From: an uncultured Coriobacteriaceae bacterium
GTDB taxonomy: Bacteria > Actinomycetota > Coriobacteriia > Anaerosomatales > CAZWGV01
Length of the DNA: 64,000 bases
Direction of reading: 5' to 3'
Assembly: GCA_964633595.1 (NCBI GenBank)
Contig: CAZWGV010000002.1
Location: 211 to 64,210, forward strand
Below are positions 15,778 through 38,289 of this stretch, in pieces. The notes under the pieces were generated by a model. The model had not been told where the DNA came from, searched no databases, and saw only the letters and a program-made list of their open reading frames with translations. Position 1 is the stretch's first letter, and each line of letters opens with the position of its first letter. The position numbers were made by a program, and so were the translations under genes.

Positions 15778-15778
15778 C

Positions 15779-17585: not shown

Positions 17586-17689
17586 GCTCACTCACCAGCA
17601 AGCAGCCCGTGCCGCAGGGAAGTCACCCCACGAGGGACCGCTGGGACCCCGGAGACGGGGCCTGGACGGCCAGAGGGAGGTAGCCCGCT

Positions 17690-18592: not shown

Positions 18593-18598
18593 GCGCGG

Positions 18599-20376: not shown

Positions 20377-20377
20377 G

Positions 20378-22174
20378 ATGACTCACCCGGCGGAGCACGA
20401 CACCACGAGAGAACGCCGCAGTGGCCTTCCGGAGCGGCCGGTGCTCACGGATGCGGCTAGACTGCCGGACGTGTTCGGCAGGCGGTATCTGCTGGAGTTC
20501 GACACGGAGGCGATCCCTCGGCACCACAGCGATGTGCTGGTGATCGGCTCGGGCATTGCCGGGCTCACCACAGCCCTGGCGGCCTCCCGCTCCCGGACCG
20601 TTTCCCTCGTCACCAAGGGCACCCTGTCCGAGGCGGGCACGTGGTACGCGCAGGGAGGCATAGCGGGGGCGGTGGGTGAGACCGACTCGGTGGAGCTCCA
20701 CCTCGCCGACACGCTGCTCGTGGGGCAGGGTCTTTGCGAGGAGTCCGTAGTGCGAGCGGTGGTGGGTGAAGCCGCCGACGCGCTTCGAGAGATCGCTGAG
20801 CTAGGCGTGCGATTCGACCGCGAGGCCAGCGGGGAGGTCGCGCTCGCTCGCGAGGGAGGGCACAGCCTGCCGAGGGTGCTGCACACCGGCGACTCCACGG
20901 GCGCCGCTGTGCAGGAGACGCTCACAGGCCTGGTCCGCCGGCGGGGGAAGGTCTCGCTGCACGAATCCCGATTCCTGGTCGACCTCCTCACAGCCGGTGA
21001 TCGCTGCGTGGGCGCGCTCGTGATGGACACCGGATCGCGATCGCTCGAGGCCTTCTGGGCGGATGCGGTGGTGCTCGCCACGGGCGGGTGCGGTCACGCG
21101 TACAGGGTTACTACGAACCCCGCTCTCTCCACCGGCGACGGGGTGGCCGCGGCCTGGAGGGCGGGCGCTGACATCGCGGACATGGAGTTCGTGCAGTTCC
21201 ACCCCACCGCGCTGGACAGCGGCGCGAACCCCAGGTTCCTCATCACGGAGGCCCTGCGCGGCGAGGGGGCATACCTGCTCGACTGCGACGAGCGCCGCTT
21301 CATGCCCGACGTGCACGAGCTAGCTGAGCTAGCACCGCGCGACGTCGTGAGCAGGGCGATCGAGCGCGTGATGGCGCGCTGCGGCCGCCCCAATGTGTGG
21401 CTGGACGCCAGGCACCTGGACGCGGAGCATCTGCGGCGCCGGTTCCCGACAGCCTGGGAGCGCTGCGCCTCGGCGGGATTCGACCTCTCTGTCGACCTCG
21501 TACCAGTGGCTCCGGCCGCGCACTACATGATCGGGGGCGTGCGGGTAGACATCGACGGTCGCTCGTCGCTCCCAGGCCTGTACGCCGCCGGCGAAGTGAC
21601 CGCGTCGGGACTGCACGGAGCCAACCGCCTCGCCTCCAACTCGCTCCTCGAGGGCCTGGTGTTCTCTCGGCGGATCGTCCGAGCCCTCGAGCATGACCGC
21701 GGCACCACGCCACCGCTGAGGGTCGTGTCGTCGCCGTGGGATTCGGCTGCCGCCTTCAACCAGCCACTCGCTCGCGAGACGGTGCAGGGCGTCATGAGCA
21801 CCTTCGTGGGGATGACGCGCTCCGACGGCGGACTCGCCGAGGCGGCCTCGCTGCTGCAGGAGATGAGTGCGATCCTGGGCGTCACCTTCCATCGTGCCGA
21901 GGAGATAGAGCTGCAGAACCTGGTCACAGCCGCCACGCTGGTGACGCACGCGGCGTGGTTGCGCGAGGAGAGCCGCGGCGCTCACCACCGGGCAGACCAC
22001 CCCGGCCGGGACGACGAGCTTTGGCTGAGCCACCTTGTGTGGCATCGAGGTTCGATGCCCGAGACGGTCCCGGTGGGCGGACTCGGCGACATCGCGGCCG
22101 CTGGGGCGTCCGTGCTCGACGACAGCTCCAGTGGCGAGGTGGCGCGCCCATCGGCGCCGACAGGCGGGGTCTAG
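20378..22174 (+). CDS. nadB: L-aspartate oxidase
   Basis: FAD-binding motif DVLVIGSGIAGLTTA, plus WYAQGGIA, FHPT and RGEG. It would carry a ~50-aa N-terminal extension if ATG 20378 (1 nt after the nadA stop) is used. Confidence 0.92.
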   Translation: MTHPAEHDTTRERRSGLPERPVLTDAARLPDVFGRRYLLEFDTEAIPRHHSDVLVIGSGIAGLTTALAASRSRTVSLVTKGTLSEAGTWYAQGGIAGAVGETDSVELHLADTLLVGQGLCEESVVRAVVGEAADALREIAELGVRFDREASGEVALAREGGHSLPRVLHTGDSTGAAVQETLTGLVRRRGKVSLHESRFLVDLLTAGDRCVGALVMDTGSRSLEAFWADAVVLATGGCGHAYRVTTNPALSTGDGVAAAWRAGADIADMEFVQFHPTALDSGANPRFLITEALRGEGAYLLDCDERRFMPDVHELAELAPRDVVSRAIERVMARCGRPNVWLDARHLDAEHLRRRFPTAWERCASAGFDLSVDLVPVAPAAHYMIGGVRVDIDGRSSLPGLYAAGEVTASGLHGANRLASNSLLEGLVFSRRIVRALEHDRGTTPPLRVVSSPWDSAAAFNQPLARETVQGVMSTFVGMTRSDGGLAEAASLLQEMSAILGVTFHRAEEIELQNLVTAATLVTHAAWLREESRGAHHRADHPGRDDELWLSHLVWHRGSMPETVPVGGLGDIAAAGASVLDDSSSGEVARPSAPTGGV

Positions 22175-22180
22175 CGGGCG

Positions 22181-23125
22181 ATGTTCGAGCTTCCCAACAC
22201 CGACGACGTTATCGCGCGCGCGCTCGCGGAGGACCTGGGCGTCTCGCCACGCCGCCTGCTCGATCACTCGGCCGACCCCCAGGATCTGCTGGCTCGCGAT
22301 GTGACCTCGGCGGCGGTACTCCCCGCAGGCGCTCGCTTCGAGGGCGTGGTGGTCGCGCGCGAGGCATGCGTGGTCTGCGGCCTCCCGGTGGCGGCGCGCG
22401 TCTGGGCGATGCTGGCGCAGGCTGCGGATGCAAAAGAGGCCGTGGACGTCTTCCCGACAGTGGCCGAAGGCTCCGCGGTGGAAGCGGGCACGGTTGTCGC
22501 CGAGGTAGAGGGCCCCGCGGCGCTCGTGCTGGTCGGCGAGCGAACGGCACTCGACTTCATGGCGGTGCTCTCGGGCATCGCCACCGAGGCCCGACGGTGG
22601 CAGGAGGAGGCCGGAGAAGGGCTCGCGGTGTGTGACACCCGCAAGACGGTGCCGGGACTTCGTGCGCTCTCCAAGTACGCGGTGCGCGTGGGCGGGGCCG
22701 AAAACCATCGATCGGGTCTATGGGATATGGTGCTGGTGAAGGACAACCACGTGCGGCAAGCCGGCGGGCTGCTCGCTGCGGTGCGGGCGGCTGTCGAGGT
22801 CGCTGAGGATGCGGGACTTCTGGTCGAGGCCGAGGTTGAGAGCGCCGAGCAGGCCGTCGAGGCGGCCTTCGCCGGGGCCGACATCGTTCTGATCGACAAC
22901 GCAAGTGACGATGTGGTGGCCGAGACGGTCGCCGCCGTGAAGGAAGCGTGCGCCGAGAGTGGCGCGACATGTCTGGTGGAGGTGTCTGGCGGAGTGACGT
23001 TCGAGCGTCTCGGCGCGATCGCTGCGGCGGGGGCTGACAGGGTCTCCGCGAGCGGGCTCACGCTAGCCCCACCTTGCGACTTCGGCCTGGACGAGAAGCG
23101 GGCGAGCGGGGGGACGGGCGAGTGA
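22181..23125 (+). CDS. nadC: nicotinate-nucleotide pyrophosphorylase (carboxylating)
   Basis: Motifs CDTRKTVPGLRALSKYAVRVGGAENHRSGLWDMVLVKDNH and VEVSGGV. Confidence 0.95.
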   Translation: MFELPNTDDVIARALAEDLGVSPRRLLDHSADPQDLLARDVTSAAVLPAGARFEGVVVAREACVVCGLPVAARVWAMLAQAADAKEAVDVFPTVAEGSAVEAGTVVAEVEGPAALVLVGERTALDFMAVLSGIATEARRWQEEAGEGLAVCDTRKTVPGLRALSKYAVRVGGAENHRSGLWDMVLVKDNHVRQAGGLLAAVRAAVEVAEDAGLLVEAEVESAEQAVEAAFAGADIVLIDNASDDVVAETVAAVKEACAESGATCLVEVSGGVTFERLGAIAAAGADRVSASGLTLAPPCDFGLDEKRASGGTGE

Positions 23126-23883
23126 GTGGCCCGGTCACCGGTCTAGCGCCGCTAGACTGGATCCTCGGCCTGCTCGATACGTTCGGCTACCCCATCGTGC
23201 TGGTGGCAACAGCGCTGGAGAACGTGTTCGTGGTGGGATCCTTCACCCCTGGCGAGACCATCGTGTTGGCTACAGCGTTCACCGCCGCCAACGATCACCT
23301 GGAAGTCATACTCGTGTGGTTTCTTAGCATTCTCGGCACGGTCATCGGCAGCAACATCAGCTTCTTCTTGGGCGTTAGAGGCGGGCGCGGAGCGGTGGAG
23401 CGCTATGGGCACCGCTTTCACATCAGTGACGCACGTATCGCCGCCGCCGAGGAGTACTTTCAGCGGCACGGCGCCAAGACGGTGCTCATCGCCCGGTTTG
23501 CGGCTGGGGTGAAGAACTTCGTTCCCATGCTGGCCGGTGTCTCCAAGATGTCCGTGGCGCTCTTCGAGTTCTATACGGTCTTGGGAGCGCTCGTCTACAC
23601 CACGGTGCTGGTGAGCGTGGGGTGGTTCTTCGGCGAGAACTTCGACGCGGCGCTTGAAGCCTTGCGCGACATAGGGTTCGGGGCGCTGGTGCTGCTCGCG
23701 GTTGGGGCGGGCTTGGCCTTCTGGGGCAGGTGGCGTCGCAAGCAGCGCGACCGGGAGCTGGCCGAGGCGCACGACGAGGGCGATGTGGCGGGTGGTGCCG
23801 AGGGCCACGACGAGGGCGATGTGGCGGGTGGTGCCGAGGGCCACGACGAGGGCGATTCGGGTGGCTCGGGTCTCGGTTCGTAG
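23122..23883 (+). CDS. dedA: DedA-family membrane protein with repeat-containing acidic tail
   Basis: Motifs GYPIVLVATALENVFVVGSFTPGETIVL and RFAAGVKNFVPMLAGVS. GTG 23122 overlaps the nadC stop (GTGA). The C-terminal tail reads HDEGDVAGGAEG x2.5. Confidence 0.85.
   Translation: MSGPVTGLAPLDWILGLLDTFGYPIVLVATALENVFVVGSFTPGETIVLATAFTAANDHLEVILVWFLSILGTVIGSNISFFLGVRGGRGAVERYGHRFHISDARIAAAEEYFQRHGAKTVLIARFAAGVKNFVPMLAGVSKMSVALFEFYTVLGALVYTTVLVSVGWFFGENFDAALEALRDIGFGALVLLAVGAGLAFWGRWRRKQRDRELAEAHDEGDVAGGAEGHDEGDVAGGAEGHDEGDSGGSGLGS
23770..23858 (+). repeat. 36-bp in-frame tandem repeat (2.5 copies) at the dedA 3' end
   Basis: The unit CACGACGAGGGCGATGTGGCGGGTGGTGCCGAGGGC sits at 23770-23805 and 23806-23841, with a partial third copy running to 23858. 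Confidence 0.9.
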
Positions 23884-24898
23884 ACACACCATCCTCGCGG
23901 CGCTACGGGAGGCCGGGGCCGGGGGGGTCTCTGGCGAGACGGTCGCGTGCGAACTCGGGGTGAGCAGGACCGCCGTCGCCAAGCACGTGAACTCCCTGCG
24001 GGAACTCGGCTACGAGATCGAGGCTGTTCCGGGGTGGGGCTACCGTCTCCTCAGCACTCCTGACTTGCCGATCCCCGAGGAGGTCTTGCCTCGCCTGCAC
24101 CCCGGCTTCTGGACACACCTCGAGGGCGGCGGGATCTCGGTGTCCACCAACGACGAGTGCAAGGATCTGGCGCGCCGCGGCGCTCCCGAGGGGACGGCGG
24201 TGCTCGCGAGTTCACAGACCGGCGGGCGCGGCCGTCTGGGTCGGCGGTGGAGTTCGCCCCAAGGGGGCGTCTACGTGTCGGCCATCCTCCGGCCCGCGCT
24301 TGCGCCGGGCGACATTCCTCCGCTCGCCCTGGTGGTCTCCTTGGGGGTGGCCAGGGGGCTCGCGCACCTCGGAGTCCCGGCCCGGCTGAAGTGGCCCAAC
24401 GATGTGGTTTCCGCCGATCCGCCCTGGCCCAAGCTCGCGGGAGTTCTCCTCGAGACAGCCGCCGAGGCGGACAGGGTGGAGTGGGTCGTGGCGGGGGTGG
24501 GCGTCAACGTGCGCCCTTCGGGGCGGCGATTCGCCGGAGCGGCCTACGCCGAGGATGTCGCGGGCGGCCGTGTCGCCCTGGCCGAGGTGGCGGCAGCGGT
24601 ACTCGACGGCCTCGCCGGCGCCTACTCGGAGTTCGTCGCGGGGGGATTCAGTCCCCTGCGTGAGGAGTACGAGTCCCTGCTGGTTCTCGTGGGCGGCGAC
24701 GTCACCGTGTCGGACGCGACGGGTCGCGTTGTGGCCGAGGGTCGTGTTGAGGGCGTCGACGATCAGGGCAGGCTTCTCCTCGACGGCCCTGCCGGTCGCG
24801 TGGGGGCGGTTGCGGGCGAGGTAACACTGCGCCGAGAGGCGGATCCGCGCCGTGAAGCCCACCAGCGCCGAGAGGCGGACCCGGACGGCCCCCGATGA
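23861..24898 (+). CDS. birA: bifunctional biotin operon repressor / biotin-protein ligase BirA
   Basis: N-terminal wHTH ILAALREAGAGGVSGETVACELGVSRTAVAKHVNSLRELGYEIEAVPGWGYRL and ligase signature GGRGRLGRRWSSPQGG. The start is uncertain; GTG 23861 is the first plausible one after the dedA repeats. Confidence 0.9.
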   Translation: MARVSVRRHTILAALREAGAGGVSGETVACELGVSRTAVAKHVNSLRELGYEIEAVPGWGYRLLSTPDLPIPEEVLPRLHPGFWTHLEGGGISVSTNDECKDLARRGAPEGTAVLASSQTGGRGRLGRRWSSPQGGVYVSAILRPALAPGDIPPLALVVSLGVARGLAHLGVPARLKWPNDVVSADPPWPKLAGVLLETAAEADRVEWVVAGVGVNVRPSGRRFAGAAYAEDVAGGRVALAEVAAAVLDGLAGAYSEFVAGGFSPLREEYESLLVLVGGDVTVSDATGRVVAEGRVEGVDDQGRLLLDGPAGRVGAVAGEVTLRREADPRREAHQRREADPDGPR

Positions 24899-27009
24899 TC
24901 CCCGACCTGTCCCCTAAGGGTCTTGGCAGGATCTTCGACGACGCGCTCGCGCTGTACCGGGCCAACGCCGTGCCCATCCTGGCCGTCGCCGCGATCGTGG
25001 TCTTCCCGCTTGCGCTAGCCAACGGCATCGCGCAGTCCTTCTACACACGCGGTCTGCTCGCGCTGCTCCCGGTCATCAGTGGCGGCGAGATCCCATCTGC
25101 CGAGCTCGGCAGGCTGCAGGCGTTCTCGGCAGCGGGCAACGCGGTGATCCCCTTCTACCTGGCAGGTCGGCTATTTTTGGCGGTGTGTCTCTATGTGTCC
25201 GCGCCCGCGCTGCTCTACGGCGTGCGCGTCGGGAGGCGAGATCTGGTGCGAGGTGGGTGGTCCCGCGCACTGCCTGTACTCGGCGTGTACGCAGCCTACG
25301 TGGCCGGTGCCGGGATGCTTGCCATCGTGGGTGCCCTTGTGACCTTCTTCCTTCTCGGGCTGCCCGGCCTCATCTTCGCGGGCTACGTGGCGTTGCGGTT
25401 CGCCCTGGCGCCGGTGGTGTCCGCGGCCGAAGGGGCTGGCTTCGAGCGCTCCTTCAGGCGTTCCTGGGAACTCACCGCCGGACGCGTCCGGCGCACGCTA
25501 GGCTTCGTACTTCTTCTGGGCCTCCTGTCTTCGTTGTTGCAGGCTGCGGTGGGGTCGCTGGGAGCGATCCGCCAACTCGTAGAGAGCGTGCAAAGACCCG
25601 AGGCCGTCTTCGAGCAGTTGTCGGTCGGTTGGAAGGTTGCCGAGGGGCTGCTGTCCGCCGCCTCGATCACGGTAGTGCTGCCGTTCGTCTTCTTGTCCTG
25701 GTACGTGTTCTACGTTGATCTCCGAGCGCGCCGAGAGGGGATGGACCTGCTCGTGCGAGCACAGGCGCTGGCGTCGCCCGAGGATGCTATGGGTGGACCG
25801 CCGAAGGAGCGCCAGCGAACCACGCTGGGCTCCGGCGCCGTGACGCTGGCGCTTGTGGCGGCGCTGACGCTGTGCGCCGCAACGTTCGCCCGTCCGGCGG
25901 CCGCCAGTCCAGCGCTCGCAAGCCCCGCGCTCGCCGAAGAGCAGCCTTCTTCGCTGGCCGACTACCGGTCACGGGTGACGGAAGCCTCGCTCTTGATGGA
26001 GGAACGGCGATCGGATATCGCCGACGAGATCGCGGCCCTGGAGGTTGCCACAGGAGTGGGCGCGCTGCTGCCCGCCTCTGAGGAGATCCGCCTGGGCGAT
26101 GTCGTTGTAGAGGTGGACAACAGCGTTCTCAACAGCTTGGTCGTTCGACTGGACTCGGCGGACAGCGAGCTCGAACGCGAGAGGGCGGCGGACGACATCG
26201 CTCTTCATCTCTCCTCGCTCGCGCGGTCTCTGGATCCCGCAGCAGGGTCGCGGGTGCCCCAGGACCCACAGGCGCTGCGCGAATTGCTCGAGCGCCATCG
26301 CGTTGCGGGGCGGTCGGCCTTCTCCGACTGGTTCGGCCAGCTCGTAGAGCGCGCGCAGGAGTGGCTCTCCGACCGCTTGCGGGGAGTTTCGATCGCCGGC
26401 ATGCCACCAGGAGTCACCACTGCGGTGATCGTGGTCCTGGTGTCCATCCTCGCGGCAGCGCTCGCCTGGGTGGCAACCATCGCTATCCGGGCAGGGAGGG
26501 GGGCTTTCGCGCGCGACGAGGGTACCTCGCCACTCGTGCCCCCGCCGCCCGTTCCCACACAGCCCGAGGATGAGCCTGCCGACCCGCTGTCGGCGGCCGA
26601 CGCGCTCGCTCGCTCGGGTCGGCATCGCGAAGCGGTCCGTGTGCTGTTCAAGGGGGCGGTGCGCTTCCTCGCCTCGCGGGGTGCGATAGCTGACGCTAGG
26701 GCGCGGACCACGAGCGAGCTGGTTGCCGAGGTGAAGTCCCGCGCACCTGTCTCGGCGCGGCCGATCGCGGATCTTGCGGGCGGATTCGAAGTGGCCTGGT
26801 ACGGTCACGTCGATCCTGAACCCGAAGGCTACGCCTTCGCCCGAGCGGCCTTCGAGGCGCTCGCCCCCGCAGGTGGCGCCCTCGCCGCGAGCGACCACCC
26901 CGCCGACGACCTCTCGGCGAGCGACCCCCCCTCCGGCGACCCCTCCGCCAGCGACCCCTCGGCCAGCCATCCCGCCGGGGAGTCCCGCGGTCCGCGGAGC
27001 TCGCGATGA
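24895..27009 (+). CDS. polytopic membrane protein with C-terminal DUF4129 domain
   Basis: The ~290-aa multi-TM N-terminus resembles the GDPD-membrane-domain type. A helical middle region, a TM segment (VTTAVIVVLVSILAAALAWVATIAI) and a DUF4129-like segment (ADALARSGRHREAVRVLFKGAVRFL...FEVAWYGH) follow. ATGA overlap with birA. Confidence 0.75.
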   Translation: MIPDLSPKGLGRIFDDALALYRANAVPILAVAAIVVFPLALANGIAQSFYTRGLLALLPVISGGEIPSAELGRLQAFSAAGNAVIPFYLAGRLFLAVCLYVSAPALLYGVRVGRRDLVRGGWSRALPVLGVYAAYVAGAGMLAIVGALVTFFLLGLPGLIFAGYVALRFALAPVVSAAEGAGFERSFRRSWELTAGRVRRTLGFVLLLGLLSSLLQAAVGSLGAIRQLVESVQRPEAVFEQLSVGWKVAEGLLSAASITVVLPFVFLSWYVFYVDLRARREGMDLLVRAQALASPEDAMGGPPKERQRTTLGSGAVTLALVAALTLCAATFARPAAASPALASPALAEEQPSSLADYRSRVTEASLLMEERRSDIADEIAALEVATGVGALLPASEEIRLGDVVVEVDNSVLNSLVVRLDSADSELERERAADDIALHLSSLARSLDPAAGSRVPQDPQALRELLERHRVAGRSAFSDWFGQLVERAQEWLSDRLRGVSIAGMPPGVTTAVIVVLVSILAAALAWVATIAIRAGRGAFARDEGTSPLVPPPPVPTQPEDEPADPLSAADALARSGRHREAVRVLFKGAVRFLASRGAIADARARTTSELVAEVKSRAPVSARPIADLAGGFEVAWYGHVDPEPEGYAFARAAFEALAPAGGALAASDHPADDLSASDPPSGDPSASDPSASHPAGESRGPRSSR

Positions 27010-28130
27010 CCGTCTCGCGGCGTATTGACGCGCGTACCGCGGCGATAGCGATCGGCGCTCTCCTTGTGGTCGCCGCATACGCCGCGGTGGTTGCGCTATC
27101 GAGGTCCTACTACGCAGTCTCCGGCGCACCGGGCTCGGTGTTCTCCACGTCCCCGGAGGGACTCAGCGTTCTCTCGGCATACATGGAGGAGCTGGGCGTT
27201 CGTACCCAAACGCTGCAGGACTTCGACGAGCTCCCACGGCGTGCCACGGTCGTTCTCGCTGCCGAGCGCCCGCTGGAGAAGCGGCCGAGCTCGGCGGAGA
27301 AGGCGCGCGTCATGCGCTGGGTGCGCGACGGAGGACGGCTGGTGCTGCTAGGGAGGCAGGCCGACGAACTCGTGGGGCTTGTGGGGGATCTGGGCGGGAG
27401 GAGCACTGAGGGTGGGCGCTCGCTGCTGCATATGCCCGCCTATGCTGACGGGGTGAGAGAGGTGCACCTGGGGTCCGACCGCATACTGACGGCTGGACCA
27501 CAGTGGGTCACTCACGCAAAGGACGAGGCCGGGCAGATGGTCATCTCCCGGGCGATCGGCCTGGGCGAGGTGGTGTGGGTGGCCGATACGCACCCAGCCA
27601 CCAACGAGGGCATCAGCGAGGCCGACAACGCGCGCTTCGTGACGGTGTTGCTGGCTGGGCCCGGCCGCCCCGTCCACTTCGACGAGTACCATCATGGATA
27701 CGTGCGCTCCGGTGGCGCCTGGGCTCGGCTCGGGTCGGGTGGGCGGGTGGCCGTCATGCTGTTGGCCGCCTCGGCGCTCCTCGCGCTGCTCGCCCGGGCG
27801 CGAAGGCTGGGCCCGCCGATCCCGGCCCCGCAGGTGCGTTCTGCGCGGGGTGGAGGCTTCGTCGGGTCGCTGGCCGAGCTGTACCGCAGGGCCGGGGCTC
27901 GCACGCAGGCACTGGATTCACTCGCTGACGGTCTGGTGCGGTCTGTCGCGAGAAGGCATGGTTCGGCCGAGATCGGGCTTGCCCGACATCCGTCAGCCGC
28001 AGGCGCGGTCGAGAGGGTCGCCGAGCTCAAGCAGCGAGGCGGAGTGAGCGAAGACGAGTTCATCCAGGCCGCTGGCGCCATCCGGCGGGCGAGGCGAGAG
28101 TTGGAGGGCATCGATGGCCGCAGCAGCTGA
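27006..28130 (+). CDS. DUF4350 domain protein
   Basis: N-terminal TM segment, then LVLLGRQ and VVWVADTHPATNEGISEADNARFV, then a C-terminal TM segment. This is typical of the DUF4350 partner of MoxR/DUF58. ATGA overlap with the upstream gene. Confidence 0.7.
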   Translation: MTVSRRIDARTAAIAIGALLVVAAYAAVVALSRSYYAVSGAPGSVFSTSPEGLSVLSAYMEELGVRTQTLQDFDELPRRATVVLAAERPLEKRPSSAEKARVMRWVRDGGRLVLLGRQADELVGLVGDLGGRSTEGGRSLLHMPAYADGVREVHLGSDRILTAGPQWVTHAKDEAGQMVISRAIGLGEVVWVADTHPATNEGISEADNARFVTVLLAGPGRPVHFDEYHHGYVRSGGAWARLGSGGRVAVMLLAASALLALLARARRLGPPIPAPQVRSARGGGFVGSLAELYRRAGARTQALDSLADGLVRSVARRHGSAEIGLARHPSAAGAVERVAELKQRGGVSEDEFIQAAGAIRRARRELEGIDGRSS

Positions 28131-29073
28131 GGTGACCAGACTGGCCGAATCGGTACGAGCCGAGGTGGCCAAAGCCGTGGTTGGACAGGAGCAAGTCGTT
28201 GAGGGGCTGCTCGTCGGCCTGCTCACCGGGGGTCACGTGCTCGTGGAAGGGGTTCCGGGGACTGCCAAGACGTTGCTCGCCAGGAGTGTGGCATGCGCCC
28301 TGGACGTCTCCTTCAAGCGCATCCAGTTCAGCCCCGACCTCATGCCCGCCGACGTCGTCGGCACCAACGTCTACGATGCCGAGTCAGGTCGCTTCAACCT
28401 CCGACCGGGTCCCATCTTCGCCAACCTGGTCCTCGCCGACGAGATCAACCGAACCCCACCCAAGACGCAGTCAGCGCTCTTGGAGGCGATGCAGGAAGGC
28501 CAAGTCACCATTGACGGCGTTAGCCATCCGCTGCCCCAGCCGTTCATGGTCGTCGCCACGCAGAACCCGGTGGAGTACGAGGGCACCTACCCGCTTCCAG
28601 AAGCGCAACTCGATCGCTTCGAGCAGAAGCTGCTGGTCGAGTACCCCTCGGCTGAGCAGGAGGCCGAGATACTCAGGCGTCATGTCGGTGGCATGGAGCT
28701 GCCGTCCTTCGAGCGGCTGGGCCTGCGGGCGGTTGCGACTGCCGAAGACGTGCTGCGTGCTCGGGAAGCTCTAGACGGCGTAGTCGTCGACGAGGGAGTC
28801 GTCGCGTATGTGGCGGCGATCGTCAGAGCTACCCGCGATCACCCTGCGGCGAGTCTCGGCGCCAGCCCTCGTGCGGCGGTGGCGTTGCTGGTCACAGCGA
28901 AGGCCCGTGCGCTGCTCGCCGGGCGCGGGTTCGTCACCCCTGACGACGTGAAGGGCGCCGCACCGTCGTGTCTGAGGCACCGTCTGGTCCTGCGACCGGA
29001 GATCGAGATCGAGGGCACCGGCGCCGACGCCGTGATCGGCGACGTACTCCAGGCGGTAGCGGTTCCGCGGTGA
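28114..29073 (+). CDS. moxR: MoxR-family AAA+ ATPase
   Basis: Motifs GHVLVEGVPGTAKTLLARSVA, LVLADEINRTPPKTQSALLEAMQEGQVTIDG and VVATQNPVEYEGTYPLPEAQLDRF. Confidence 0.95.
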   Translation: MAAAAEVTRLAESVRAEVAKAVVGQEQVVEGLLVGLLTGGHVLVEGVPGTAKTLLARSVACALDVSFKRIQFSPDLMPADVVGTNVYDAESGRFNLRPGPIFANLVLADEINRTPPKTQSALLEAMQEGQVTIDGVSHPLPQPFMVVATQNPVEYEGTYPLPEAQLDRFEQKLLVEYPSAEQEAEILRRHVGGMELPSFERLGLRAVATAEDVLRAREALDGVVVDEGVVAYVAAIVRATRDHPAASLGASPRAAVALLVTAKARALLAGRGFVTPDDVKGAAPSCLRHRLVLRPEIEIEGTGADAVIGDVLQAVAVPR

Positions 29074-30416
29074 CCTCGGCCCGGGACATAGTCCGGCGCA
29101 TCGGCGCGATCCACCTCACGGGCAAGGCGGCGGCCCTGCTCGGCGCAGGCGCGATCCCGGCGCTCATCGCCCCGGGGCGATGGTCTTTGCTCGTCGGTGC
29201 CGTCTGGGCAGCGATGTGGATCTACGCCGTCCGCAGAGACGTCCGCGACGCTCTCGGTCCGGCGGAACTGGAGTTCGAGCGCGAGCTGCCCGCGAAGCTG
29301 TCGATCGGCGTGGCCAACAAGGTGACCATGCGTGTGCGCTCGCTCGCCGGGCGTCCCGGGCGGCTGGCGATGCGGGAGACGCCCCCACCCGAGTTCACTG
29401 GCGAGAGGCGGATCGCCATCGCGTCTCTCGGGCCATACGAGTCGCGTGAGGTGCTGCTCCACTTCGTGCCGGGTTCCAGAGGGCGCTACTCGTTCGGCAA
29501 CCCGGGAGTGCGCACGCTCGGTCCGCGCGGACTGGCCGGACGGCGCTTCGACGTCCCCCTCGAGCGCGAGTGCCGCGTCTATCCCGACATCACGGCGGTC
29601 GAGCGCTACGCTCTGCTCGCACGACGAGGGATGCTCCATGAGGCGGGGATCAGGGCCGCGCGCTTGGCCGGAGTGGGAACCGAGTTCTCAACCCTGGCCG
29701 AGTACGTTGACGGCGACGACTTTCGCGACATCGATTGGAAGGCCACTGCGCGTCGAGGCTCCCCCGTGGTAAGGCGGTTCGAGGCCGAGCGCAGCAGGAC
29801 CGTGCTCCTCGCGATAGACGCCGGCAGACTGATGACTCCGCGTGTGGGCGGCGTGACGAAGCTCGATCGTGCGGTTGACGCCGCCCTCCTGCTGGCCTAT
29901 CTTGCGTCGGCGTCCGGTGACCTCGCCGGCCTTCTCGTGTTCGGCCGGGATGTGCAGACGTACGTCCCTCCGCGTCGCGGACACCGGCAGTTCCTCGCCA
30001 TACTCGAGGCGCTCTATCCGGTCCAGGCCGCGATGGAGGAGCCCGACTACGGGCGTGCTCTGCGCTACCTCGCCACCAGACAACAGAAGCGCTCGCTCAT
30101 CGTGCTCTTCACGGAGCTAGTCGGCGCCGAGGCGTCCGGACGGCTGTTGCGCGTGCTACCCGGGTTGTCAGCCCGACACCTGCCGCTGGTGATCACGCAG
30201 CGCAACCGCGAGCTCGAGGAGCGCGCAGTCCAAGAGGCCTCATCCGAGATCGGGGTATTCGAGGCGGCGGTGGCCGAGGACATCGCTCGGGAGAAGGCCG
30301 CCGCCGTGGGAGCCCTCCGGGCGCGGGGCGCGCTGGTGCTCGATGTGCTACCCGAGAGGCTGTCGGTCTCGGCAGTCAACCGCTTCCTCGAAGTGAAGGC
30401 GCGCGGGAGGCTCTAG
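29070..30416 (+). CDS. DUF58 domain protein (MoxR partner, vWA-like fold)
   Basis: The GTG overlaps the moxR stop (GTGA). Two N-terminal TM segments and the DUF58 signature DFRDIDWKATARRGSPVVRRFEAERSRTVLLAIDAGRLM. Confidence 0.88.
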   Translation: MTSARDIVRRIGAIHLTGKAAALLGAGAIPALIAPGRWSLLVGAVWAAMWIYAVRRDVRDALGPAELEFERELPAKLSIGVANKVTMRVRSLAGRPGRLAMRETPPPEFTGERRIAIASLGPYESREVLLHFVPGSRGRYSFGNPGVRTLGPRGLAGRRFDVPLERECRVYPDITAVERYALLARRGMLHEAGIRAARLAGVGTEFSTLAEYVDGDDFRDIDWKATARRGSPVVRRFEAERSRTVLLAIDAGRLMTPRVGGVTKLDRAVDAALLLAYLASASGDLAGLLVFGRDVQTYVPPRRGHRQFLAILEALYPVQAAMEEPDYGRALRYLATRQQKRSLIVLFTELVGAEASGRLLRVLPGLSARHLPLVITQRNRELEERAVQEASSEIGVFEAAVAEDIAREKAAAVGALRARGALVLDVLPERLSVSAVNRFLEVKARGRL

Positions 30417-31405
30417 CGTTCTGCCGCCGAGCGACCCGACGGATCTCCGGCTCGGCCCGCCAACACGATGTAGGCGACCAGTGCGATCGCCGTGGCCACG
30501 CCGAAAGCGATCTTTGCGGCCGGATCGATCGCGGTAGGGGTCAGGAACCCCTCGATGATGCCAGCCACCATGAGCAACGGGACGGCTCCGAGCACCACTC
30601 GCGCCGCGTCCGGTGCCACGCGCGTCAGAGCAGTGGTACGCGGCAGGTCACCGGGTAGTATCAGTGCGCCCGCCAGCATCAGTCCCCCGCAACCGGCGAG
30701 CGCTATCGCGGGGAGTTCGAGAGCGCCGTGCGGGATGATGAGCGACCAGAAGAAGGCGGAGTGCCCGGCCTTGGCGAAAACGCCTGCGAGTGTGCCCAGA
30801 AGAAGCCCGTTCGCGACGAGGGAGAAGGTGGTGAGAGCGCCGAGGGTCATCCCTCCGGCAAACGCGGTCAGCGCCGCCTGTATGTTGTTGGCGGTGATGC
30901 CGGCCGTGAGCAGCGGCGCGGCAGTGGCGGCTATCGCGGGCAGGTCGCGTCCCCTCTCCACCGCGTCTCCGATGCCATCACGGAAGAGCTCGGGCAGAAA
31001 GAGGCGAGCAAGGGGGTAGTTCACAAACGACAGGACGTAGCCCATGGCCCCCGCGCCGAAGAGCATCACAACGGCCAGCAGCAGTGGACGCCAGTTGCGG
31101 CGGATGAGCGAGGGCCACCCGGATACGACGAAGTGCAGGAGCGAGCCGAACCTCCTCGGGGCAGATCCGTATAGCTCGGCGTGAGCCATGGCCACGAGCC
31201 TGTTCAAACGCGTCGTGATGCGCGAGTCGGGGAAGTGGGTCTGCGCGTAGGCGAGGTCTGCCGCCGTCCGGCGGTAGTCCTCGTGCATGCGTCTCACGGC
31301 GTCTGCGTTGCGGCTGGCAGATGAGCCGTGACGGCTCTGGCGGACTGATGCCGAGAGCCGTTCCCACGCGTCGCGCGACTCGGCGATGAACTCCCGCTCC
31401 CTCAA
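30413..31405 (-). CDS. SpoIIM-like (DUF95) integral membrane protein
   Basis: Motif IIPHGALELPAIALAG, multiple TM segments and a cytoplasmic helical N-terminus. The start is uncertain: TTG 31405 was chosen, and the ORF stays open to 31627 but would then overlap the divergent RDD gene. Confidence 0.75.
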   Translation of the reverse strand: MREREFIAESRDAWERLSASVRQSRHGSSASRNADAVRRMHEDYRRTAADLAYAQTHFPDSRITTRLNRLVAMAHAELYGSAPRRFGSLLHFVVSGWPSLIRRNWRPLLLAVVMLFGAGAMGYVLSFVNYPLARLFLPELFRDGIGDAVERGRDLPAIAATAAPLLTAGITANNIQAALTAFAGGMTLGALTTFSLVANGLLLGTLAGVFAKAGHSAFFWSLIIPHGALELPAIALAGCGGLMLAGALILPGDLPRTTALTRVAPDAARVVLGAVPLLMVAGIIEGFLTPTAIDPAAKIAFGVATAIALVAYIVLAGRAGDPSGRSAAER

Positions 31406-31565
31406 AGCTTCCTCCGCATGTTGGATGCGTTGCCGCGCGCTGGGCGGGGCGCGGTCGCGGGCCCAAGAGCAGGGTCCATGCCAGCGGTAACGATGACCTC
31501 GGGTGCTCGGCACATTATCATCGCATCGACGGGCCGAGGGCGCACCAGCTGGAGGTGGCACGGCG

Positions 31566-32279
31566 ATGGAGACCCGAGGCGCTACGGAGCTGCTGGTCGT
31601 CGAGACCCCCGAGTCGGTGGCCTTCACCTACGAGCTGGCCGGGGTGCCCGCCCGCGGCCTCGCCGCCGCGCTCGACGCCCTGATCCTGCTGGGGTTGCTC
31701 GCGGCCGAGGGGCTGCTCGCGGTACTCGCCGTCTTCTTGGCCGGACGGCTGGGTGTGGATGTAACCTCACTCGTCGGATCCTGGATCATCGCGATGGTCG
31801 TCGCTGTCGTCTTTCTGACCTTCTGGGGTTACTACATCATCGGCGAGACAGTTGGCGACGGTCGCACGCCTGGGAAGCGGGCGCTGGGCTTGCGGGTTGT
31901 CAGGGACGACGGCAGTCCCATCGGTCCCATGGACTCGGTGATCCGCAACGTGGTGAGGGTAGTCGATCTGCTACCGGGCACCTACGCACTAGCCATCTGG
32001 TCCGCCGTGCTCTCCGGACGCAATAAGCGGCTGGGAGACTTCGCCGCGGGAACCGTCGTCGTCCGGGAGTCGTCGATCGCCGATACAGCTACCGCATTCG
32101 AGGTGGCGGATGAAGAGGGTCTCCTTCTTGCCGAATACGCCGAGCGGAGAGAGGGCCTGACGGAGGACGCCAGGATGCAGCTCACCCTGGCGCTTCTCTC
32201 GCTGCACGGGGAGTCCGTGCCGCCGGGCGTGGCCGAGCCGAGCGCCTTCGCCAGATTGCGCGACCTCTCGCGAACCTGA
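31566..32279 (+). CDS. RDD-family membrane protein
   Basis: Motifs GLAAALDALILLGL and GRTPGKRALGLRVVRDDGSPIG. It is transcribed divergently from the SpoIIM-like gene. Confidence 0.85.
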   Translation: METRGATELLVVETPESVAFTYELAGVPARGLAAALDALILLGLLAAEGLLAVLAVFLAGRLGVDVTSLVGSWIIAMVVAVVFLTFWGYYIIGETVGDGRTPGKRALGLRVVRDDGSPIGPMDSVIRNVVRVVDLLPGTYALAIWSAVLSGRNKRLGDFAAGTVVVRESSIADTATAFEVADEEGLLLAEYAERREGLTEDARMQLTLALLSLHGESVPPGVAEPSAFARLRDLSRT

Positions 32280-32329: not shown

Positions 32330-32358
32330 TTGACCCGCATGTCCCCCTCGGCTACCGT
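32330..32358 (+). promoter_or_regulatory. candidate bioY promoter (-35 TTGACC, 17-bp spacer, -10 TACCGT)
   Basis: Hexamers were read at 32330-32335 and 32353-32358. The -10 element lies inside the left arm of the BirA operator. Confidence 0.4.
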
Positions 32359-32388
32359 AAACCGAATGTGAGCGCAGGTTTACGGTAG
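32352..32388. promoter_or_regulatory. BirA operator (bioO-like inverted repeat)
   Basis: CTACCGTAAACC-N13-GGTTTACGGTAG is a perfect 12-bp inverted repeat lying 20 nt upstream of the bioY ATG. Its core, GTAAACC...GGTTTAC, matches the E. coli-type BirA box TTGTAAACC...GGTTTACAA. Confidence 0.8.
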
Positions 32389-32408: not shown

Positions 32409-32975
32409 ATGCGGGGGAATTCAGTTGCGGCGACCCACGACGGGACGGCGAGGGTGGCCACACGAGTCGGCCTGTTGGTCGCCTTGCTCGCAGTGTCTGC
32501 TCAGATCATGGTGCCGCTCGGTCCTGTGCCCGCGACGCTCCAGGTGCTGGTGGTTGTCTTGTGCGCGCAGCTGCTGCGGCCCTCCGCGGCGGCCGCAGCG
32601 ATGGGCTGCTACCTGCTCTTGGGTGCGGCGGGCGTTCCTGTATTCGCGCAGTGGGCAGGAGGCCTCGGGGTGATCCTCGGTCCTACCGGAGGATACCTGG
32701 TGGGTTTCGCCGCCGGAGCCTGGGCGGGCGCGCTCATGCGCACCGCCCTGCGCGACCGAGGGGCGGCTCACGCCTTCGGGGATGTTGTGGCGGCGGTCGT
32801 CTGCATCGCCACGATCTACATCCTTGGTGTGCCGTGGCTCGCGTACTCCACCGGGATGGGGCTCTGGGCCGCGGTGGCGGCCGGCGCGCTACCATTCCTT
32901 GCGATCGACGCGGCCAAGGCCGCCGCGGCCACGGTCCTCGCCTCAGCGCTACGGCGCACGGGCCTGGGGGACTAG
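32409..32975 (+). CDS. bioY: biotin transporter BioY
   Basis: A 188-aa six-TM protein with LLAVSAQIMVPLGPVPATLQVLVV and GPTGGYLVGF. RBS GGAAGGGG. Confidence 0.92.
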   Translation: MRGNSVAATHDGTARVATRVGLLVALLAVSAQIMVPLGPVPATLQVLVVVLCAQLLRPSAAAAAMGCYLLLGAAGVPVFAQWAGGLGVILGPTGGYLVGFAAGAWAGALMRTALRDRGAAHAFGDVVAAVVCIATIYILGVPWLAYSTGMGLWAAVAAGALPFLAIDAAKAAAATVLASALRRTGLGD

Positions 32976-33015: not shown

Positions 33016-33071
33016 ATCCAGTGCGGAGACACGCCGGATCCAGTGCGGAGACACGCCGGATCCAGTGCGGA
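33016..33071. repeat. 22-bp direct tandem repeat, 2.5 copies (ATCCAGTGCGGAGACACGCCGG)
   Basis: Perfect copies lie at 33016-33037 and 33038-33059, with a 12-nt partial third copy. The repeat is intergenic, between bioY and the SbcD-like gene. Confidence 0.9.
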
Positions 33072-34414: not shown

Positions 34415-36927
34415 GGTTGCGCCGAGTCGAAGCCGTCCGCTTCGGGAGACTCGACGGCGTCACTCTAGGCGACCTGGGCGATGGGCTCACGGTGGTCCTG
34501 GGCCCCAACGAAGCGGGCAAGAGCAGCTTCACCACGCTAGTCCGCCACGTCCTCTACGGTTTCCCCACCCCCGCCTCGAAGGAGGCCTACATCAGTGAGG
34601 CCGGCAAGCGGCTCGGCAGACTGGTGTTCGCGGACGGCGAGGGCGAGTGGGTGGTGGAGCGTGCGGAGGGACCGCGCGGCGGTCCGATGAGCGTGCGCGC
34701 CATCTCCGGAAGCGAGCGCCCAGGGCTGGTCGACGAGCTCACCCGCGGCGTGAGCGCCACAGCATTCCACGTCGTCTTCGGCTTCGGCCTGGCCGAACTC
34801 GCGGACATCGAGCGCGCCCGGAGCTCGGGAGACGATCTGATATCGCGGCTCTACGCCGCAGGCGCGGGGCTTTCTGTGAGTCCTCAGGACGCCCGAGCGG
34901 CCATCAGCAAACGAGCCGACGAACTCTGGGGGGGACGGGCATCATCTCGCGAGGTGAACAAGCTCGTCTCCAGGATGCAGGAGATCCGCTCGCGTTTGCA
35001 GGAAGTGGAGCTGCAGGCCGACCAGTACGCCGATGATCGGCGGCGCCTCACCGAACTCACGGACCTCGCGGAGGCGGCGCGCACGGAGCGCGACACCGCG
35101 CAGCGCAGGCGCTCAGAGCTCGTCCGCGATGCCGAGCAGCTCGAGCAGCTCGAATGCTCCATTGTGGGGCTTCGCGAGGAGATCGCCGAGGGCGAGAGGC
35201 ATCAGGTCCGGCTGCGGGAGCGTCTGGCGGGCATCGATGCAGACGAGGGGGCCGTAGCCCGGGGGCCCGAGGTCGACTCACTGCTCGAAGAGGTTTCTGC
35301 CGTAAGACGCTCTCTTGCGAACCTCAGGGAGCAGGAGGCGAACGCCGGCAACTGCGGGCTGAGGCTGTCTGAGGCTTTGCACGAGGCCGGGGCCAGCGAG
35401 CAGGTTGCGATGTCGGCGGAGCTGGGACCCGCAACGATCGCCGAACTCGAGCGCCATCGGGCCACACTGTCTGAACTCCAGAGCCGCTCGGCGGAGGCGC
35501 GGCGCTTGGCCGAGGAGGACCGGATCGCAGCAGAGCGGGCCGAGCGCATGCGTGCCGGGGAGACTGGCAGGGCGGCAGCATCTCCGCTGGCGAGGCTTGG
35601 GATCGCATCGGCCGCACTCGGGGTGCTCCTGCTGATCGCTGGTCTCGTGATCGATGCGGCCGTTGCGCAGCTGACGGGTGGTGCCCTGCTGGTCTTAGGG
35701 ACGCTGGCCATCCTCTGGCTCACCGGTGCCAGGAGTAGCGCCGGCTCGGCCGTCGGTGTCGCGAGCGGCGCAGCAGAGCGTGCAGCAGCTTCCAGCGATG
35801 CCACCGCGCGCGCCGAGGCTGCGCTCGAACGCGCGAGAGAGGAGTGGCACGCCTGGATAGCGGGCAGGGGTCTCGACGGTGCCGGCGATGACCCCGCTGC
35901 CGTAGCCGCGCTCGTTGCCCTGCTGAAGGACGCGAAGCGGCTCGCGGCGGAGCGCGACGAGAAGCAGGGGGTCATCGAGAACGAGCGAGCCTACATCGAC
36001 TCATTCTCGCAGAGGCTCACCGAGACCATGGGCGTCCTGGAGCCGGGAACGAAGTCACCACCGCCCGAGGAACTCCCAGTCACGGCTTCCAAGGCAGGGG
36101 AGATCGTGAAGGTTGCGCGGGAGCGCGCCGCCGAGCGCGAAGCCCTGGAGGTTGAGATAGGAGCCCTTGCCGAGCGTCAGGAGGAACTGGGCGCGAGGCT
36201 GGAGACCTCGCTCGCCGCCGAGCAAGACATCTTGGGGCGGCACGGTCCTGGGGCGGATGACCGGAGCGCTATCCAGGCTCTGGCAGAGTCGGTGCTATCG
36301 GATCTCGAGCGCGCCGCGCTGGCGTACGACGAACTCGTCGAGGAGCGGGGCCGCCTCGAAGGGCGGCTCGGCGAAGAGGAGCGGCGAAACGAGATGGCCG
36401 AACTCCGGCTGGAGCTGGCGGGCAGCGAGGACCTCGCGGCTGACGCTTCGGCGCGCTACGCGGTATTGCGCGTGGCGGATCGGCTGCTGGCGAGCGCTCA
36501 GGAACGCTACGAGCGCGAGCGGCAGCCTGGCGTGGTGCGCGAGGCCGCCGACGTGTTCTCGAAGATCACCGGCGGTCGCTACGAGCGGCTTGCCATCCCT
36601 CTGGGCGACGGGCACATCGAGGTGTTCGACGCGCAAGCCGGCTCAAAGTCCACACTCCACTTGTCCGGAGGAACAGCGGAGCAGTTGTACCTGTCGCTCC
36701 GCATCGGGCTCTTGCGGCAACTAGGCGACGCTGGGCGCTGGCTCCCCGTGTTGATGGACGACATCATGGTGAACTTCGATCCTGAGCGCGCCGAGGGAGC
36801 GGCGGCCGCCGTGGCGGAACTCGCCACCACCAAGCAGGTGGTCGTGTTCACCTGTCATCCCCAGACGTCTGCGCTCTTCGAGAAGGTCGCACCCGGGCAC
36901 ACTTCGCTCACCCTGGAACGCTGCTAG
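34411..36927 (+). CDS. SbcC/YhaN-like SMC-type ATPase with central TM hairpin
   Basis: Walker A GPNEAGKSSFTT, long coiled-coil regions and two central TM helices (LGIASAALGVLLLIAGLVI and GGALLVLGTLAILWL). Signature LSGGTAEQLYLSLRIGL and Walker B VLMDDIMVNFD. 4-nt overlap with the upstream gene. Confidence 0.85.
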   Translation: MRLRRVEAVRFGRLDGVTLGDLGDGLTVVLGPNEAGKSSFTTLVRHVLYGFPTPASKEAYISEAGKRLGRLVFADGEGEWVVERAEGPRGGPMSVRAISGSERPGLVDELTRGVSATAFHVVFGFGLAELADIERARSSGDDLISRLYAAGAGLSVSPQDARAAISKRADELWGGRASSREVNKLVSRMQEIRSRLQEVELQADQYADDRRRLTELTDLAEAARTERDTAQRRRSELVRDAEQLEQLECSIVGLREEIAEGERHQVRLRERLAGIDADEGAVARGPEVDSLLEEVSAVRRSLANLREQEANAGNCGLRLSEALHEAGASEQVAMSAELGPATIAELERHRATLSELQSRSAEARRLAEEDRIAAERAERMRAGETGRAAASPLARLGIASAALGVLLLIAGLVIDAAVAQLTGGALLVLGTLAILWLTGARSSAGSAVGVASGAAERAAASSDATARAEAALERAREEWHAWIAGRGLDGAGDDPAAVAALVALLKDAKRLAAERDEKQGVIENERAYIDSFSQRLTETMGVLEPGTKSPPPEELPVTASKAGEIVKVARERAAEREALEVEIGALAERQEELGARLETSLAAEQDILGRHGPGADDRSAIQALAESVLSDLERAALAYDELVEERGRLEGRLGEEERRNEMAELRLELAGSEDLAADASARYAVLRVADRLLASAQERYERERQPGVVREAADVFSKITGGRYERLAIPLGDGHIEVFDAQAGSKSTLHLSGGTAEQLYLSLRIGLLRQLGDAGRWLPVLMDDIMVNFDPERAEGAAAAVAELATTKQVVVFTCHPQTSALFEKVAPGHTSLTLERC

Positions 36928-38159: not shown

Positions 38160-38289
38160 GGCGACTCCTCTGTCTCGGCTGTCTCCTTTAGTGAGCATGG
38201 GGTTGCGAGTCGACGATCCTGTGGGGGCGAGATTACGTCCTGGCAACGGGGTGCGAGGTGGCTCCCGGGATACCGATGCGCCGCGCCTG

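Follow-up and report, generated by a model that had tools for sequence, protein, structure and literature searches.

A conserved seven-family MoxR-DUF58 membrane module, bracketed by birA and bioY in one actinobacterial lineage, with a possible role in the cell envelope

Few AAA+ proteins are as widespread and as poorly understood as the MoxR ATPases, most of which have no known client. Here, we describe a gene module built around a MoxR ATPase at positions 24895-32279 of a 64,000-nucleotide stretch of DNA, referred to below as the window, from an uncultured Coriobacteriaceae bacterium of the Actinomycetota (assembly GCA_964633595.1, contig CAZWGV010000002.1, positions 211 to 64,210). The DNA is of high GC content across the window (63-71%). 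An earlier reading of the sequence by a model (the original prediction) had proposed a six-gene module of DUF4129, DUF4350, MoxR, DUF58, SpoIIM-like and RDD proteins, coupled to birA and followed by bioY. When the products of the open reading frames (ORFs) of the window were assigned to Pfam domains with curated cut-offs, all of these labels scored over the cut-offs; the Pfam matches, the ORF map and a reading of the gene junctions showed the six labels, their coordinates and orientations, and the birA and bioY flanks to be correct. The six families were thus rightly named, but the module really comprises seven, since its first ORF, of 704 amino acids (aa), is two of them fused.

The N-terminal half of the 704-aa ORF (24895-25794, forward strand) encodes a protein with six transmembrane (TM) segments that resembles DUF7847 and GPDPase_memb and is called memN below, while the C-terminal half (25795-27009) encodes a bitopic DUF4129 protein (PF13559). 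The same strand then carries the genes for a DUF4350 protein (27006-28130; PF14258, 4.4e-17), an MRP-type MoxR AAA+ ATPase (28114-29073) and a DUF58 protein (29070-30416, within an ORF of 28968-30416; PF01882, 3.2e-33, and VWA_2, 3.6e-09). The SpoIIM-like gene lies on the reverse strand (30413-31405, within an ORF of 30413-31627; PF01944, 8.8e-33). Across a divergent intergenic region of 160 nt (31406-31565), which presumably holds the promoters of both genes, it is followed by a forward-strand gene for an RDD-family membrane protein (31566-32279, within an ORF of 31503-32279; PF06271, 2.1e-18).

The junctions, as read from the sequence, are tight. ATGA overlaps connect birA with the 704-aa gene and the 704-aa gene with the DUF4350 gene, the DUF4350 and MoxR genes overlap by 17 nt, and the true DUF58 start is a GTG at 29070 that overlaps the MoxR stop codon (GTGA). 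The DUF58 and SpoIIM-like genes are convergent, with overlapping stop codons (CTAG). A PIN and RHH toxin-antitoxin pair with a small ORF sits between these two genes in three related loci (L002, 10974-11668; L003, 1565-2259; and L017; L numbers denote loci from the scans described below), and because of this the junction can be said to tolerate insertions. The true SpoIIM-like gene encodes 330 aa from a TTG start after GGAGGA, and its product is 100% identical to a protein annotated by NCBI; the RDD gene likely starts at the ATG at 31566. Ribosome-binding sites of the GGAGG type precede both starts, and the divergent spacer yielded a single weak sigma-70-like match (31493-31521, forward strand). 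A hydropathy scan supported membrane segments in every module product except MoxR, in line with the mainly membrane-resident module that had been proposed. NCBIfam gave generic AAA matches only, with no model for any membrane protein of the module.

The MoxR protein, with its AAA_3 (PF07726, 1.8e-64) and AAA_lid_2 (PF17863, 3e-22) domains, is predicted to be cytoplasmic and the sole soluble component of the module. Its Walker A (GVPGTAKT at residue 46) and Walker B (DEINR at residue 109) motifs are intact, and it matches a MoxR protein solved by structural genomics (PDB 2r44) at 8.2e-81. Its gene stands directly ahead of the DUF58 gene in the window and in related loci. The DUF58 protein (PF01882 score of 115 bits, against a cut-off of 23.4) is predicted to consist of an N-terminal TM hairpin and a cytoplasmic vWA-like domain. 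At the metal ion-dependent adhesion site (MIDAS) of that domain, the sequence reads D-A-G-R-L-M instead of the canonical DxSxS, so that the MIDAS serines are lost. Of 79 DUF58 proteins examined from metagenomes, 62 have the form D-x-G-R-[LM] (a strict pattern found no motif in 15), which is also conserved in nearly all of the aligned full-length DUF58 sequences from the genome scan, in all three locus groups.

Several MoxR/vWA pairs have a chaperone or maturation role. In the RavA-ViaA, CbbQ-CbbO, NorQ-NorD and CoxD-CoxE systems, a MoxR-family ATPase and a vWA adaptor remodel or mature a specific protein client; the clients are identified enzymes, and the vWA partners generally keep a functional MIDAS. 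Could the MoxR and DUF58 proteins of the window likewise act as a chaperone that matures an unlinked enzyme or inserts its cofactor, in the style of CoxD/E, NorQ/D, CbbQ/O or MoxR-MDH, with the membrane proteins as mere anchors or regulators? The intact ATPase motifs would fit such a role, as would a MoxR gene that always lies directly before the DUF58 gene. However, the window DUF58 protein differs from the RavA-ViaA-type partners in its MIDAS, the metal-binding serines being replaced by G and L/M throughout the subfamily, and in none of the phyla is the module accompanied by a conserved enzyme that might be its client. The candidates that conservation does offer are all membrane proteins: five co-conserved membrane partners, together with the two fusions described below, point to the membrane set itself as the client. 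We regard a chaperone for an unlinked enzyme as improbable.

The DUF4350 protein is predicted to have an N-terminal TM segment, a GldG/GIFT-like ectodomain (residues 39-241), a second TM segment and a basic cytoplasmic tail of about 100 aa, and its residues N200 and D226-E227 are invariant. A link between DUF4350 and GldG has been drawn by HHpred (PMC5898192), and an acidobacterial DUF4350 orthologue has an additional weak match to ABC_transp_aux. The SpoIIM-like protein joins a cytoplasmic, helical N-terminal domain of about 105 aa, DUF8413 (PF28475), to a SpoIIM domain with six TM segments (PF01944). Its invariant intramembrane polar residues comprise N173-N174 and the motifs P-H-G-x-x-E-x-P and E-x-F-x-T-P. 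An AlphaFold2 (AF2) model of this protein has a predicted local distance difference test (pLDDT) score of 85, and a Foldseek search with the model found no PDB match under E = 0.17. The RDD protein is predicted to have 3-4 TM segments and a cytoplasmic C-terminal tail. Sequence searches of the PDB returned nothing for the DUF58, DUF4350 or SpoIIM-like proteins.

These properties invite consideration of a transport or secretion system, in which memN and the SpoIIM-like and RDD proteins would form a channel or permease, the DUF4350 protein would be a GldG-like accessory, and MoxR would power or gate assembly. Three polytopic membrane proteins are kept together in the module, the invariant polar residues of the SpoIIM-like protein (N-N, H, E, E and T) lie within TM helices, and one RDD protein is reportedly a cation/H+ antiporter. 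The relation of DUF4350 to GldG and ABC_transp_aux (a weak match, and HHpred) and the prediction of 'a novel secretion system' for an archaeal gene set point in the same direction (Makarova et al., PMC5898192). On the other side, the conserved gene set includes no cargo, signal-bearing neighbour or outer component, the model of the SpoIIM-like protein matches the fold of no transporter of solved structure, and the archaeal set has other partners, namely Ig-like S-layer proteins. Powering transport is not a known activity of MoxR ATPases. A transport or secretion system is in our view an unlikely account of the module.

The 704-aa product had originally been taken for a single polytopic DUF4129 protein; its multi-TM N-terminus and its Asp/Ser/Pro tail were borne out, while its identity as one family gave way to a rare fusion of two proteins. 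Pfam places DUF4129 at residues 587-654 and a weak GPDPase_memb match in the N-terminal half. The closest relatives with long contigs have two genes instead, one for a memN of 289-290 aa (weak DUF7847/GPDPase_memb) and one for a DUF4129 protein of 344-376 aa; as a separate gene product, the DUF4129 protein measures 343-383 aa in most relatives. In the 22 loci with separate memN and DUF4129 genes, the two overlap by exactly 4 bp in 15 and abut or nearly abut in the others. Only the window and L011, among the locus set, have a single continuous memN-DUF4129 ORF. When 1.84 billion representative proteins were searched exhaustively with HMMER for relatives of the 704-aa sequence, 129 were found at E <= 1e-10; the best 150 matches align to residues ~1-295 or ~320-660 alone, barring the window protein itself and two that span both parts (681 and 659 aa), one of which carries DUF7847 plus DUF4129. 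Judged from these matches, the memN-DUF4129 fusion is real but rare. An assembly artefact is unlikely, because a second metagenome-assembled genome (MAG), that of L011, and two unrelated representatives are fused as well. A further fused example, P0122/L085, was discounted, as its contig is full of frameshifts.

Hydropathy gives the fused protein six TM segments, a basic cytoplasmic loop, TM7, an acidic ectodomain of about 160 aa, TM8, the cytoplasmic DUF4129 domain and the Asp/Ser/Pro tail, a predicted topology that is self-consistent. The memN part has a conserved C-terminal motif, Y-x-D-L-R-x-R-x-E-G-x-D-L, and the low-complexity tail is encoded by a 15/30-bp tandem repeat (26885-26967). 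An AF2 model of the DUF4129 half averages 80.6 in pLDDT and reaches 90-98 in blocks over most of the ectodomain and across the DUF4129 domain. The model consists of a helical ectodomain with a beta-hairpin, a long TM helix, a disordered linker and a five-helix cytoplasmic bundle, and it has no informative or significant relative among PDB structures.

The second fusion involves the other end of the module. The RDD gene is divergent from the SpoIIM-like gene in all of the 21 actinobacterial and 7 acidobacterial loci that have enough flanking sequence. In three metagenome loci, however, a single reverse-strand ORF encodes an N-terminal RDD and a C-terminal SpoIIM domain (L115, 1746-4118; L140, 5030-6871; L144, 8042-9703). 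These natural fusions cannot be frameshift artefacts, because the two genes usually lie on opposite strands. Taken together, the two kinds of fused ORF predict physical contacts of the DUF7847-like protein with the DUF4129 protein and of the RDD protein with the SpoIIM-like protein.

How widely is the module conserved? One genome per GTDB species was scanned with an alignment of SpoIIM-like proteins as the anchor. The scan yielded 83 loci, whose ORFs were labelled with iteratively built hidden Markov models; the labels of distant loci were checked against Pfam. Actinomycetota MAGs show the order RDD<- SpoIIM-> <-DUF58 <-MoxR <-DUF4350 <-DUF4129 <-memN <-birA ... nadC, with bioY and sbcD on the other side. 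All six partners of the SpoIIM-like gene were scored in 12 of the 15 Actinomycetota loci with enough flank, which is an under-count. Loci of the Acidobacteriota type have an identical seven-gene order, complete in all six with enough flank. The Cyanobacteria keep memN and RDD beside SpoIIM in 24 of 29 loci; the MoxR quartet (DUF4129, DUF4350, MoxR and DUF58) is adjacent in a few loci only, and once lies 4 kb away together with a second memN paralogue. In Streptomyces sp. (L084; CP108221.1, 9077-15554), memN-DUF4129-DUF4350-MoxR-DUF58 is divergent from mtrA-mtrB-lpqB, a conserved actinobacterial two-component system of the envelope and cell cycle, and no SpoIIM or RDD gene occurs within 5 kb of the five-gene set. 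Metagenome contigs were scanned reciprocally, with the DUF58 subfamily as the anchor; the six partners were complete in 13 of 28 loci with enough flank, each partner being present in roughly 50-75% (26/51 to 39/52). In many metagenome loci, too, the SpoIIM-like gene is convergent with DUF58 and divergent from RDD.

By our own estimate, a given family would fall within 10 kb of the anchor by chance in roughly 1% of genomes, and on this scale the co-occurrence is far beyond chance. The original prediction would have failed had the families not co-occurred beyond chance; they do co-occur, in the same order and with changing flanks. The flanks in fact turn over completely between phyla, which argues that the co-occurrence is not plain inertia of synteny. 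The recurrence across Actinomycetota, which the original prediction had included, was recovered with the same gene order, but the distribution proved wider than that phylum, extending to Acidobacteriota and in part to Cyanobacteriota. A 'Verrucomicrobiia' locus (L040) was rejected as an independent phylum; in the two aligned stretches around its DUF58 motif it is identical, or nearly so, to the Candidatus Acidiferrales loci L067 and L079, and its contig may be mis-binned. When the locus ORFs were clustered all against all, no family beyond the seven emerged as conserved across phyla; the remaining large clusters that span phyla include antisense shadows of module genes and one generic response-regulator family. 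Judged by these gene neighbourhoods, the set divides into the MoxR quartet and a membrane trio of RDD, DUF7847-like and SpoIIM-like proteins, bridged by memN.

The flanks of the window copy raise the question of biotin. Upstream of the module, a co-directional run of cofactor genes (15764-24898) comprises folP, folK, panB, panC, nadA, nadB, nadC, dedA (DedA/VTT) and birA, the product of which has HTH_11, BPL and BPL_C domains; downstream lie bioY (32409-32975), sbcD and sbcC. From its gene content, this setting is a housekeeping cofactor region and not an island. The related loci L001 and L002 share its proximal part (nadC, the VTT/DedA gene and birA, with nadB in L001). A perfect 12-nt inverted repeat, CTACCGTAAACC-N13-GGTTTACGGTAG, is located at 32352-32388, 20 nt upstream of bioY. 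The window has a single copy of its core, GTAAACC-N11-16-GGTTTAC, where none would be expected by chance; in nine related loci, the core again lies close to where bioY starts (L001, L007, L012, L014, L015, L016, L019, L020 and L086). The repeat resembles the BirA operator consensus, TTGTAAACC-N14/15-GGTTTACAA. Because BirA carries an HTH domain and an operator-like repeat precedes bioY, the two genes look like a small biotin regulon, with a putative BirA operator before bioY, that brackets the module in this lineage only.

A module that serves biotin metabolism or uptake, for example by aiding a solitary BioY, would at first sight explain why birA is translationally coupled (by 4 bp) to the first module gene, why bioY lies directly downstream, and why related Actinomycetota MAGs keep the order birA-module-bioY, with BirA in 14 and BioY in 10 of 15 loci. 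Elsewhere this linkage vanishes. BirA, BioY, NadC and SbcD occur in none of the six Acidobacteriota-type loci with enough flank, and BirA and BioY in none of the 29 cyanobacterial ones; the metagenome loci have BirA in 3 of 22, all close relatives of the window, and BioY in 2 of 22; and the Streptomyces and mycobacterial modules adjoin mtrAB-lpqB and glpK, respectively. Moreover, a birA/bioY regulon with its putative operator accounts for the relation of the two genes, and the linkage is therefore explained without any biotin function for the module. The comparative flank data effectively refute such a function, to which we give hardly any credence. The coupling to birA and the adjacency of bioY that had been pointed out are real, as the ATGA overlap shows, but they are a positional accident of this lineage and no part of the module.

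The same setting bears on a possible anti-phage or conflict system, since comparative genomics has placed MoxR-vWA pairs in some systems of that kind. The MoxR protein does have a weak Pfam match to bpMoxR (1.8e-08), beneath the far stronger AAA_3 match, and the toxin-antitoxin pair mentioned above is inserted in the module in three loci. However, PADLOC returned only two P-loop-level matches to MoxR (6e-4 and 9e-4, with no matched stretch) and none to the other five proteins, no effector-like domain (nuclease, protease or pore toxin) is present, and the module is stable and inherited in identical order across phyla. With no real PADLOC match and a housekeeping setting among cofactor-biosynthesis genes, a defence system was rejected as extremely improbable.

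The original prediction had pointed to a parallel around moxR2 of Mycobacterium tuberculosis, and a published orthology table agrees, giving RDD as Rv3695, SpoIIM as Rv3694c, DUF58 as Rv3693, MoxR as Rv3692, DUF4350 as Rv3691 and a membrane protein as Rv3689 (PMC8191103). Compared by way of that table, M. tuberculosis Rv3689-Rv3695 (MAB_0386c-MAB_0392c in M. abscessus/chelonae) has the same families, with M. chelonae orthologues that are annotated alike, and is likewise uncharacterised. In its families, their order, and a SpoIIM-like gene that is convergent with DUF58 and divergent from RDD, the window module is of this seven-family Rv3689-Rv3695 type. The membrane protein and the DUF4129 protein, which we presume to be Rv3690, are separate in M. 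tuberculosis (Rv3689/Rv3690), whereas they are fused in the window. The neighbours differ as well, being glpK in mycobacteria (PMC8191103) and birA and bioY in the window. Mentions of the mycobacterial genes are anecdotal: co-down-regulation with glpK in M. chelonae, a single-nucleotide polymorphism in Rv3690 in one cycloserine-resistant mutant, and a hit in Rv3691 by transposon site hybridization. Among the proteins that co-purify with the divisome component Rv0954 are Rv3694c and Rv3695, along with PbpA and LamA (PMC8093794). Full-text literature searches found no functional study of the ensemble, in agreement with the original prediction that the complete set has no assigned function or published characterisation, although most papers in subscription journals lie outside the coverage of such searches and could be missed.

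Two precedents come from a comparative study by Makarova et al. (2015, PMC5898192). Bacterial SpoIIM homologues were noted there beside genes for vWA proteins and COG0714 ATPases, and an archaeal neighbourhood of arCOG01314 (DUF4350), MoxR/GvpN and vWA genes was predicted to be a 'secretion or membrane remodelling complex'. The triad of DUF4350, MoxR and vWA-like proteins is common to the archaeal set and the module, and the archaeal components are mostly membrane or extracellular proteins. Their partners, however, are Ig-like S-layer-type proteins (COG4743, DUF1616), of which Pfam finds none among the module proteins, and the archaeal set is without DUF4129, DUF7847, SpoIIM and RDD as partners. 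The seven-family bacterial set, its sub-modules and its fusions are not described in that study (PMC5898192). In Bacillus subtilis, SpoIIM itself belongs to the SpoIID-SpoIIM-SpoIIP engulfment complex, a membrane scaffold for extracytoplasmic remodelling of the cell wall (PMC5898192). The PF01944 domain is common to both proteins, to which the window protein adds the cytoplasmic DUF8413. Unlike B. subtilis, the host here belongs to an uncultured, high-GC lineage of Actinomycetota and is no known endospore former. SpoIID and SpoIIP had no match among the window proteins scanned and are not conserved with the module across loci.

Two further families of operons place MoxR and DUF58 genes beside membrane proteins. 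In MoxR-DUF58-TgpA operons (P. aeruginosa tgpA, B. subtilis yeaC-yeaD-yebA and the bifidobacterial PFNA cluster), the MoxR and DUF58 genes are followed by one for a polytopic protein with a cytoplasmic DUF4129 domain. MoxR, DUF58 and a DUF4129 membrane protein are thus common to these operons and the module, and the analogy suggests that DUF4129 may be the element that couples membrane partners to MoxR and DUF58. Unlike the TgpA type, the module proteins have no Pfam match to Transglut_core, DUF3488 or FN3, and the partners in the module are the DUF4350, DUF7847-like, SpoIIM-like and RDD proteins. Bat operons and Borrelia BB0170-0176, which have an envelope- or stress-associated role, consist of MoxR (MRP), DUF58 and then membrane proteins, an order similar to that of the module. 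Here too the partners differ, as Pfam finds no BatA/BatB-type TM-vWA or TPR match in the module, and a convergent SpoIIM-like gene lies downstream of DUF58. In functional terms, the module ranks with those MoxR(MRP)-DUF58 operons in which the ATPase is combined with membrane partners of various kinds, but it is without the defining partner domains of either.

What could such an assembly do? The reading that we favour, and whose chances we would put at about even, is that a membrane-tethered MoxR-DUF58 pair carries out ATP-driven remodelling in the service of a dedicated integral-membrane complex with two ectodomains, for the housekeeping of the cell envelope. A physical complex, ATP-driven remodelling and an envelope target are all points that we infer. 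This reading is supported by the translational coupling, the gene order shared across phyla, the two fusions, the lack of any soluble client conserved with the module, and the divisome link of Rv3694c and Rv3695 through Rv0954. The predicted topologies also have a common sense: on the membrane partners, the soluble parts that are conserved (the vWA-like domain of DUF58, DUF4129, the tail of DUF4350 and DUF8413) all face the cytoplasm, where MoxR resides, and the two ectodomains face outward.

Under this remodelling model, in which the genes encode one functional unit, the MoxR quartet would be a first sub-module of engine and adaptors, with MoxR as a hexameric AAA+ ATPase alongside the DUF58, DUF4350 and DUF4129 proteins. 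The second sub-module, a polytopic membrane core, would consist of the DUF7847-like protein, the SpoIIM-like protein with its DUF8413 domain, and the RDD protein, the first two with six TM segments each. The TM hairpin of DUF58 would tether it to the membrane, and its MIDAS-less vWA-like domain would act as a protein-protein adaptor that recruits MoxR. The DUF4129 bundle, the basic tail of DUF4350 and DUF8413 are likely docking surfaces for MoxR and DUF58. MoxR could then use ATP either to assemble the membrane complex or to switch its conformation, and the change would pass via TM helices to the ectodomains of the DUF4350 and DUF4129 proteins as the output side. The complex would act outside the cytoplasmic membrane, in housekeeping biogenesis or maintenance of the envelope.

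Several considerations weigh against this model. Gene adjacency and fusions show functional linkage and not mechanism. The co-immunoprecipitation support comes from one proteomics table, the AF2 models have no significant relative of solved structure and so offer no structural pointer to an envelope substrate, and ORF clustering found no enzyme of peptidoglycan, lipid or polysaccharide metabolism conserved near the module. Some partners are missing from about 40% of the DUF58-anchored metagenome loci with enough flank. In addition, each sub-module may function on its own, or the ATPase may serve further clients; independence is possible because the cyanobacterial trio often occurs without an adjacent quartet and the Streptomyces quartet without SpoIIM or RDD.

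A bolder version would unite all seven families in a single trans-membrane machine of a kind not described before, in which a MoxR ring, docked via the MIDAS-less DUF58 together with DUF4129 and DUF8413, drives the DUF4350 and DUF4129 ectodomains on a core of SpoIIM, RDD and DUF7847 proteins. As part of the same proposal, force would be transmitted 'inside-out' to build or remodel the cell surface, by a logic like that of FtsEX or MacB but powered by MoxR, from mycobacteria to cyanobacteria. We consider this whole proposal possible but doubtful.

Annotated genomes already show this neighbourhood, of which the window copy is a further member, and the existence of the module will not surprise a MoxR specialist. 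The module nonetheless represents an unusually well-defined candidate client set for a MoxR ATPase, with five co-conserved membrane proteins and two contacts predicted by fusions. Its carriers include M. tuberculosis, Streptomyces, Acidobacteriota and many cyanobacteria. The split into trio and quartet, the DUF4129 domain in common with TgpA-type systems and the loss of the DUF58 MIDAS lead to testable pairwise predictions. If the envelope-remodelling model were true, the module would constitute a new housekeeping system of the envelope in several major phyla, a pathogen included.

The flanks of the module contain further features. At its 3' end, shortly before the likely start of birA, the DedA/VTT gene contains a 36-bp tandem repeat (2.7 copies, 96% match; 23761-23856), which encodes a repeated peptide in a long upstream extension of the birA ORF. 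In the intergenic region between bioY and sbcD, a perfect 22-bp tandem repeat, ATCCAGTGCGGAGACACGCCGG, is present in 2.5 copies (33016-33071). Downstream of sbcCD, the reverse strand encodes a CreD-like inner-membrane protein (36924-38375) and an OmpR-type response regulator (39759-40541).

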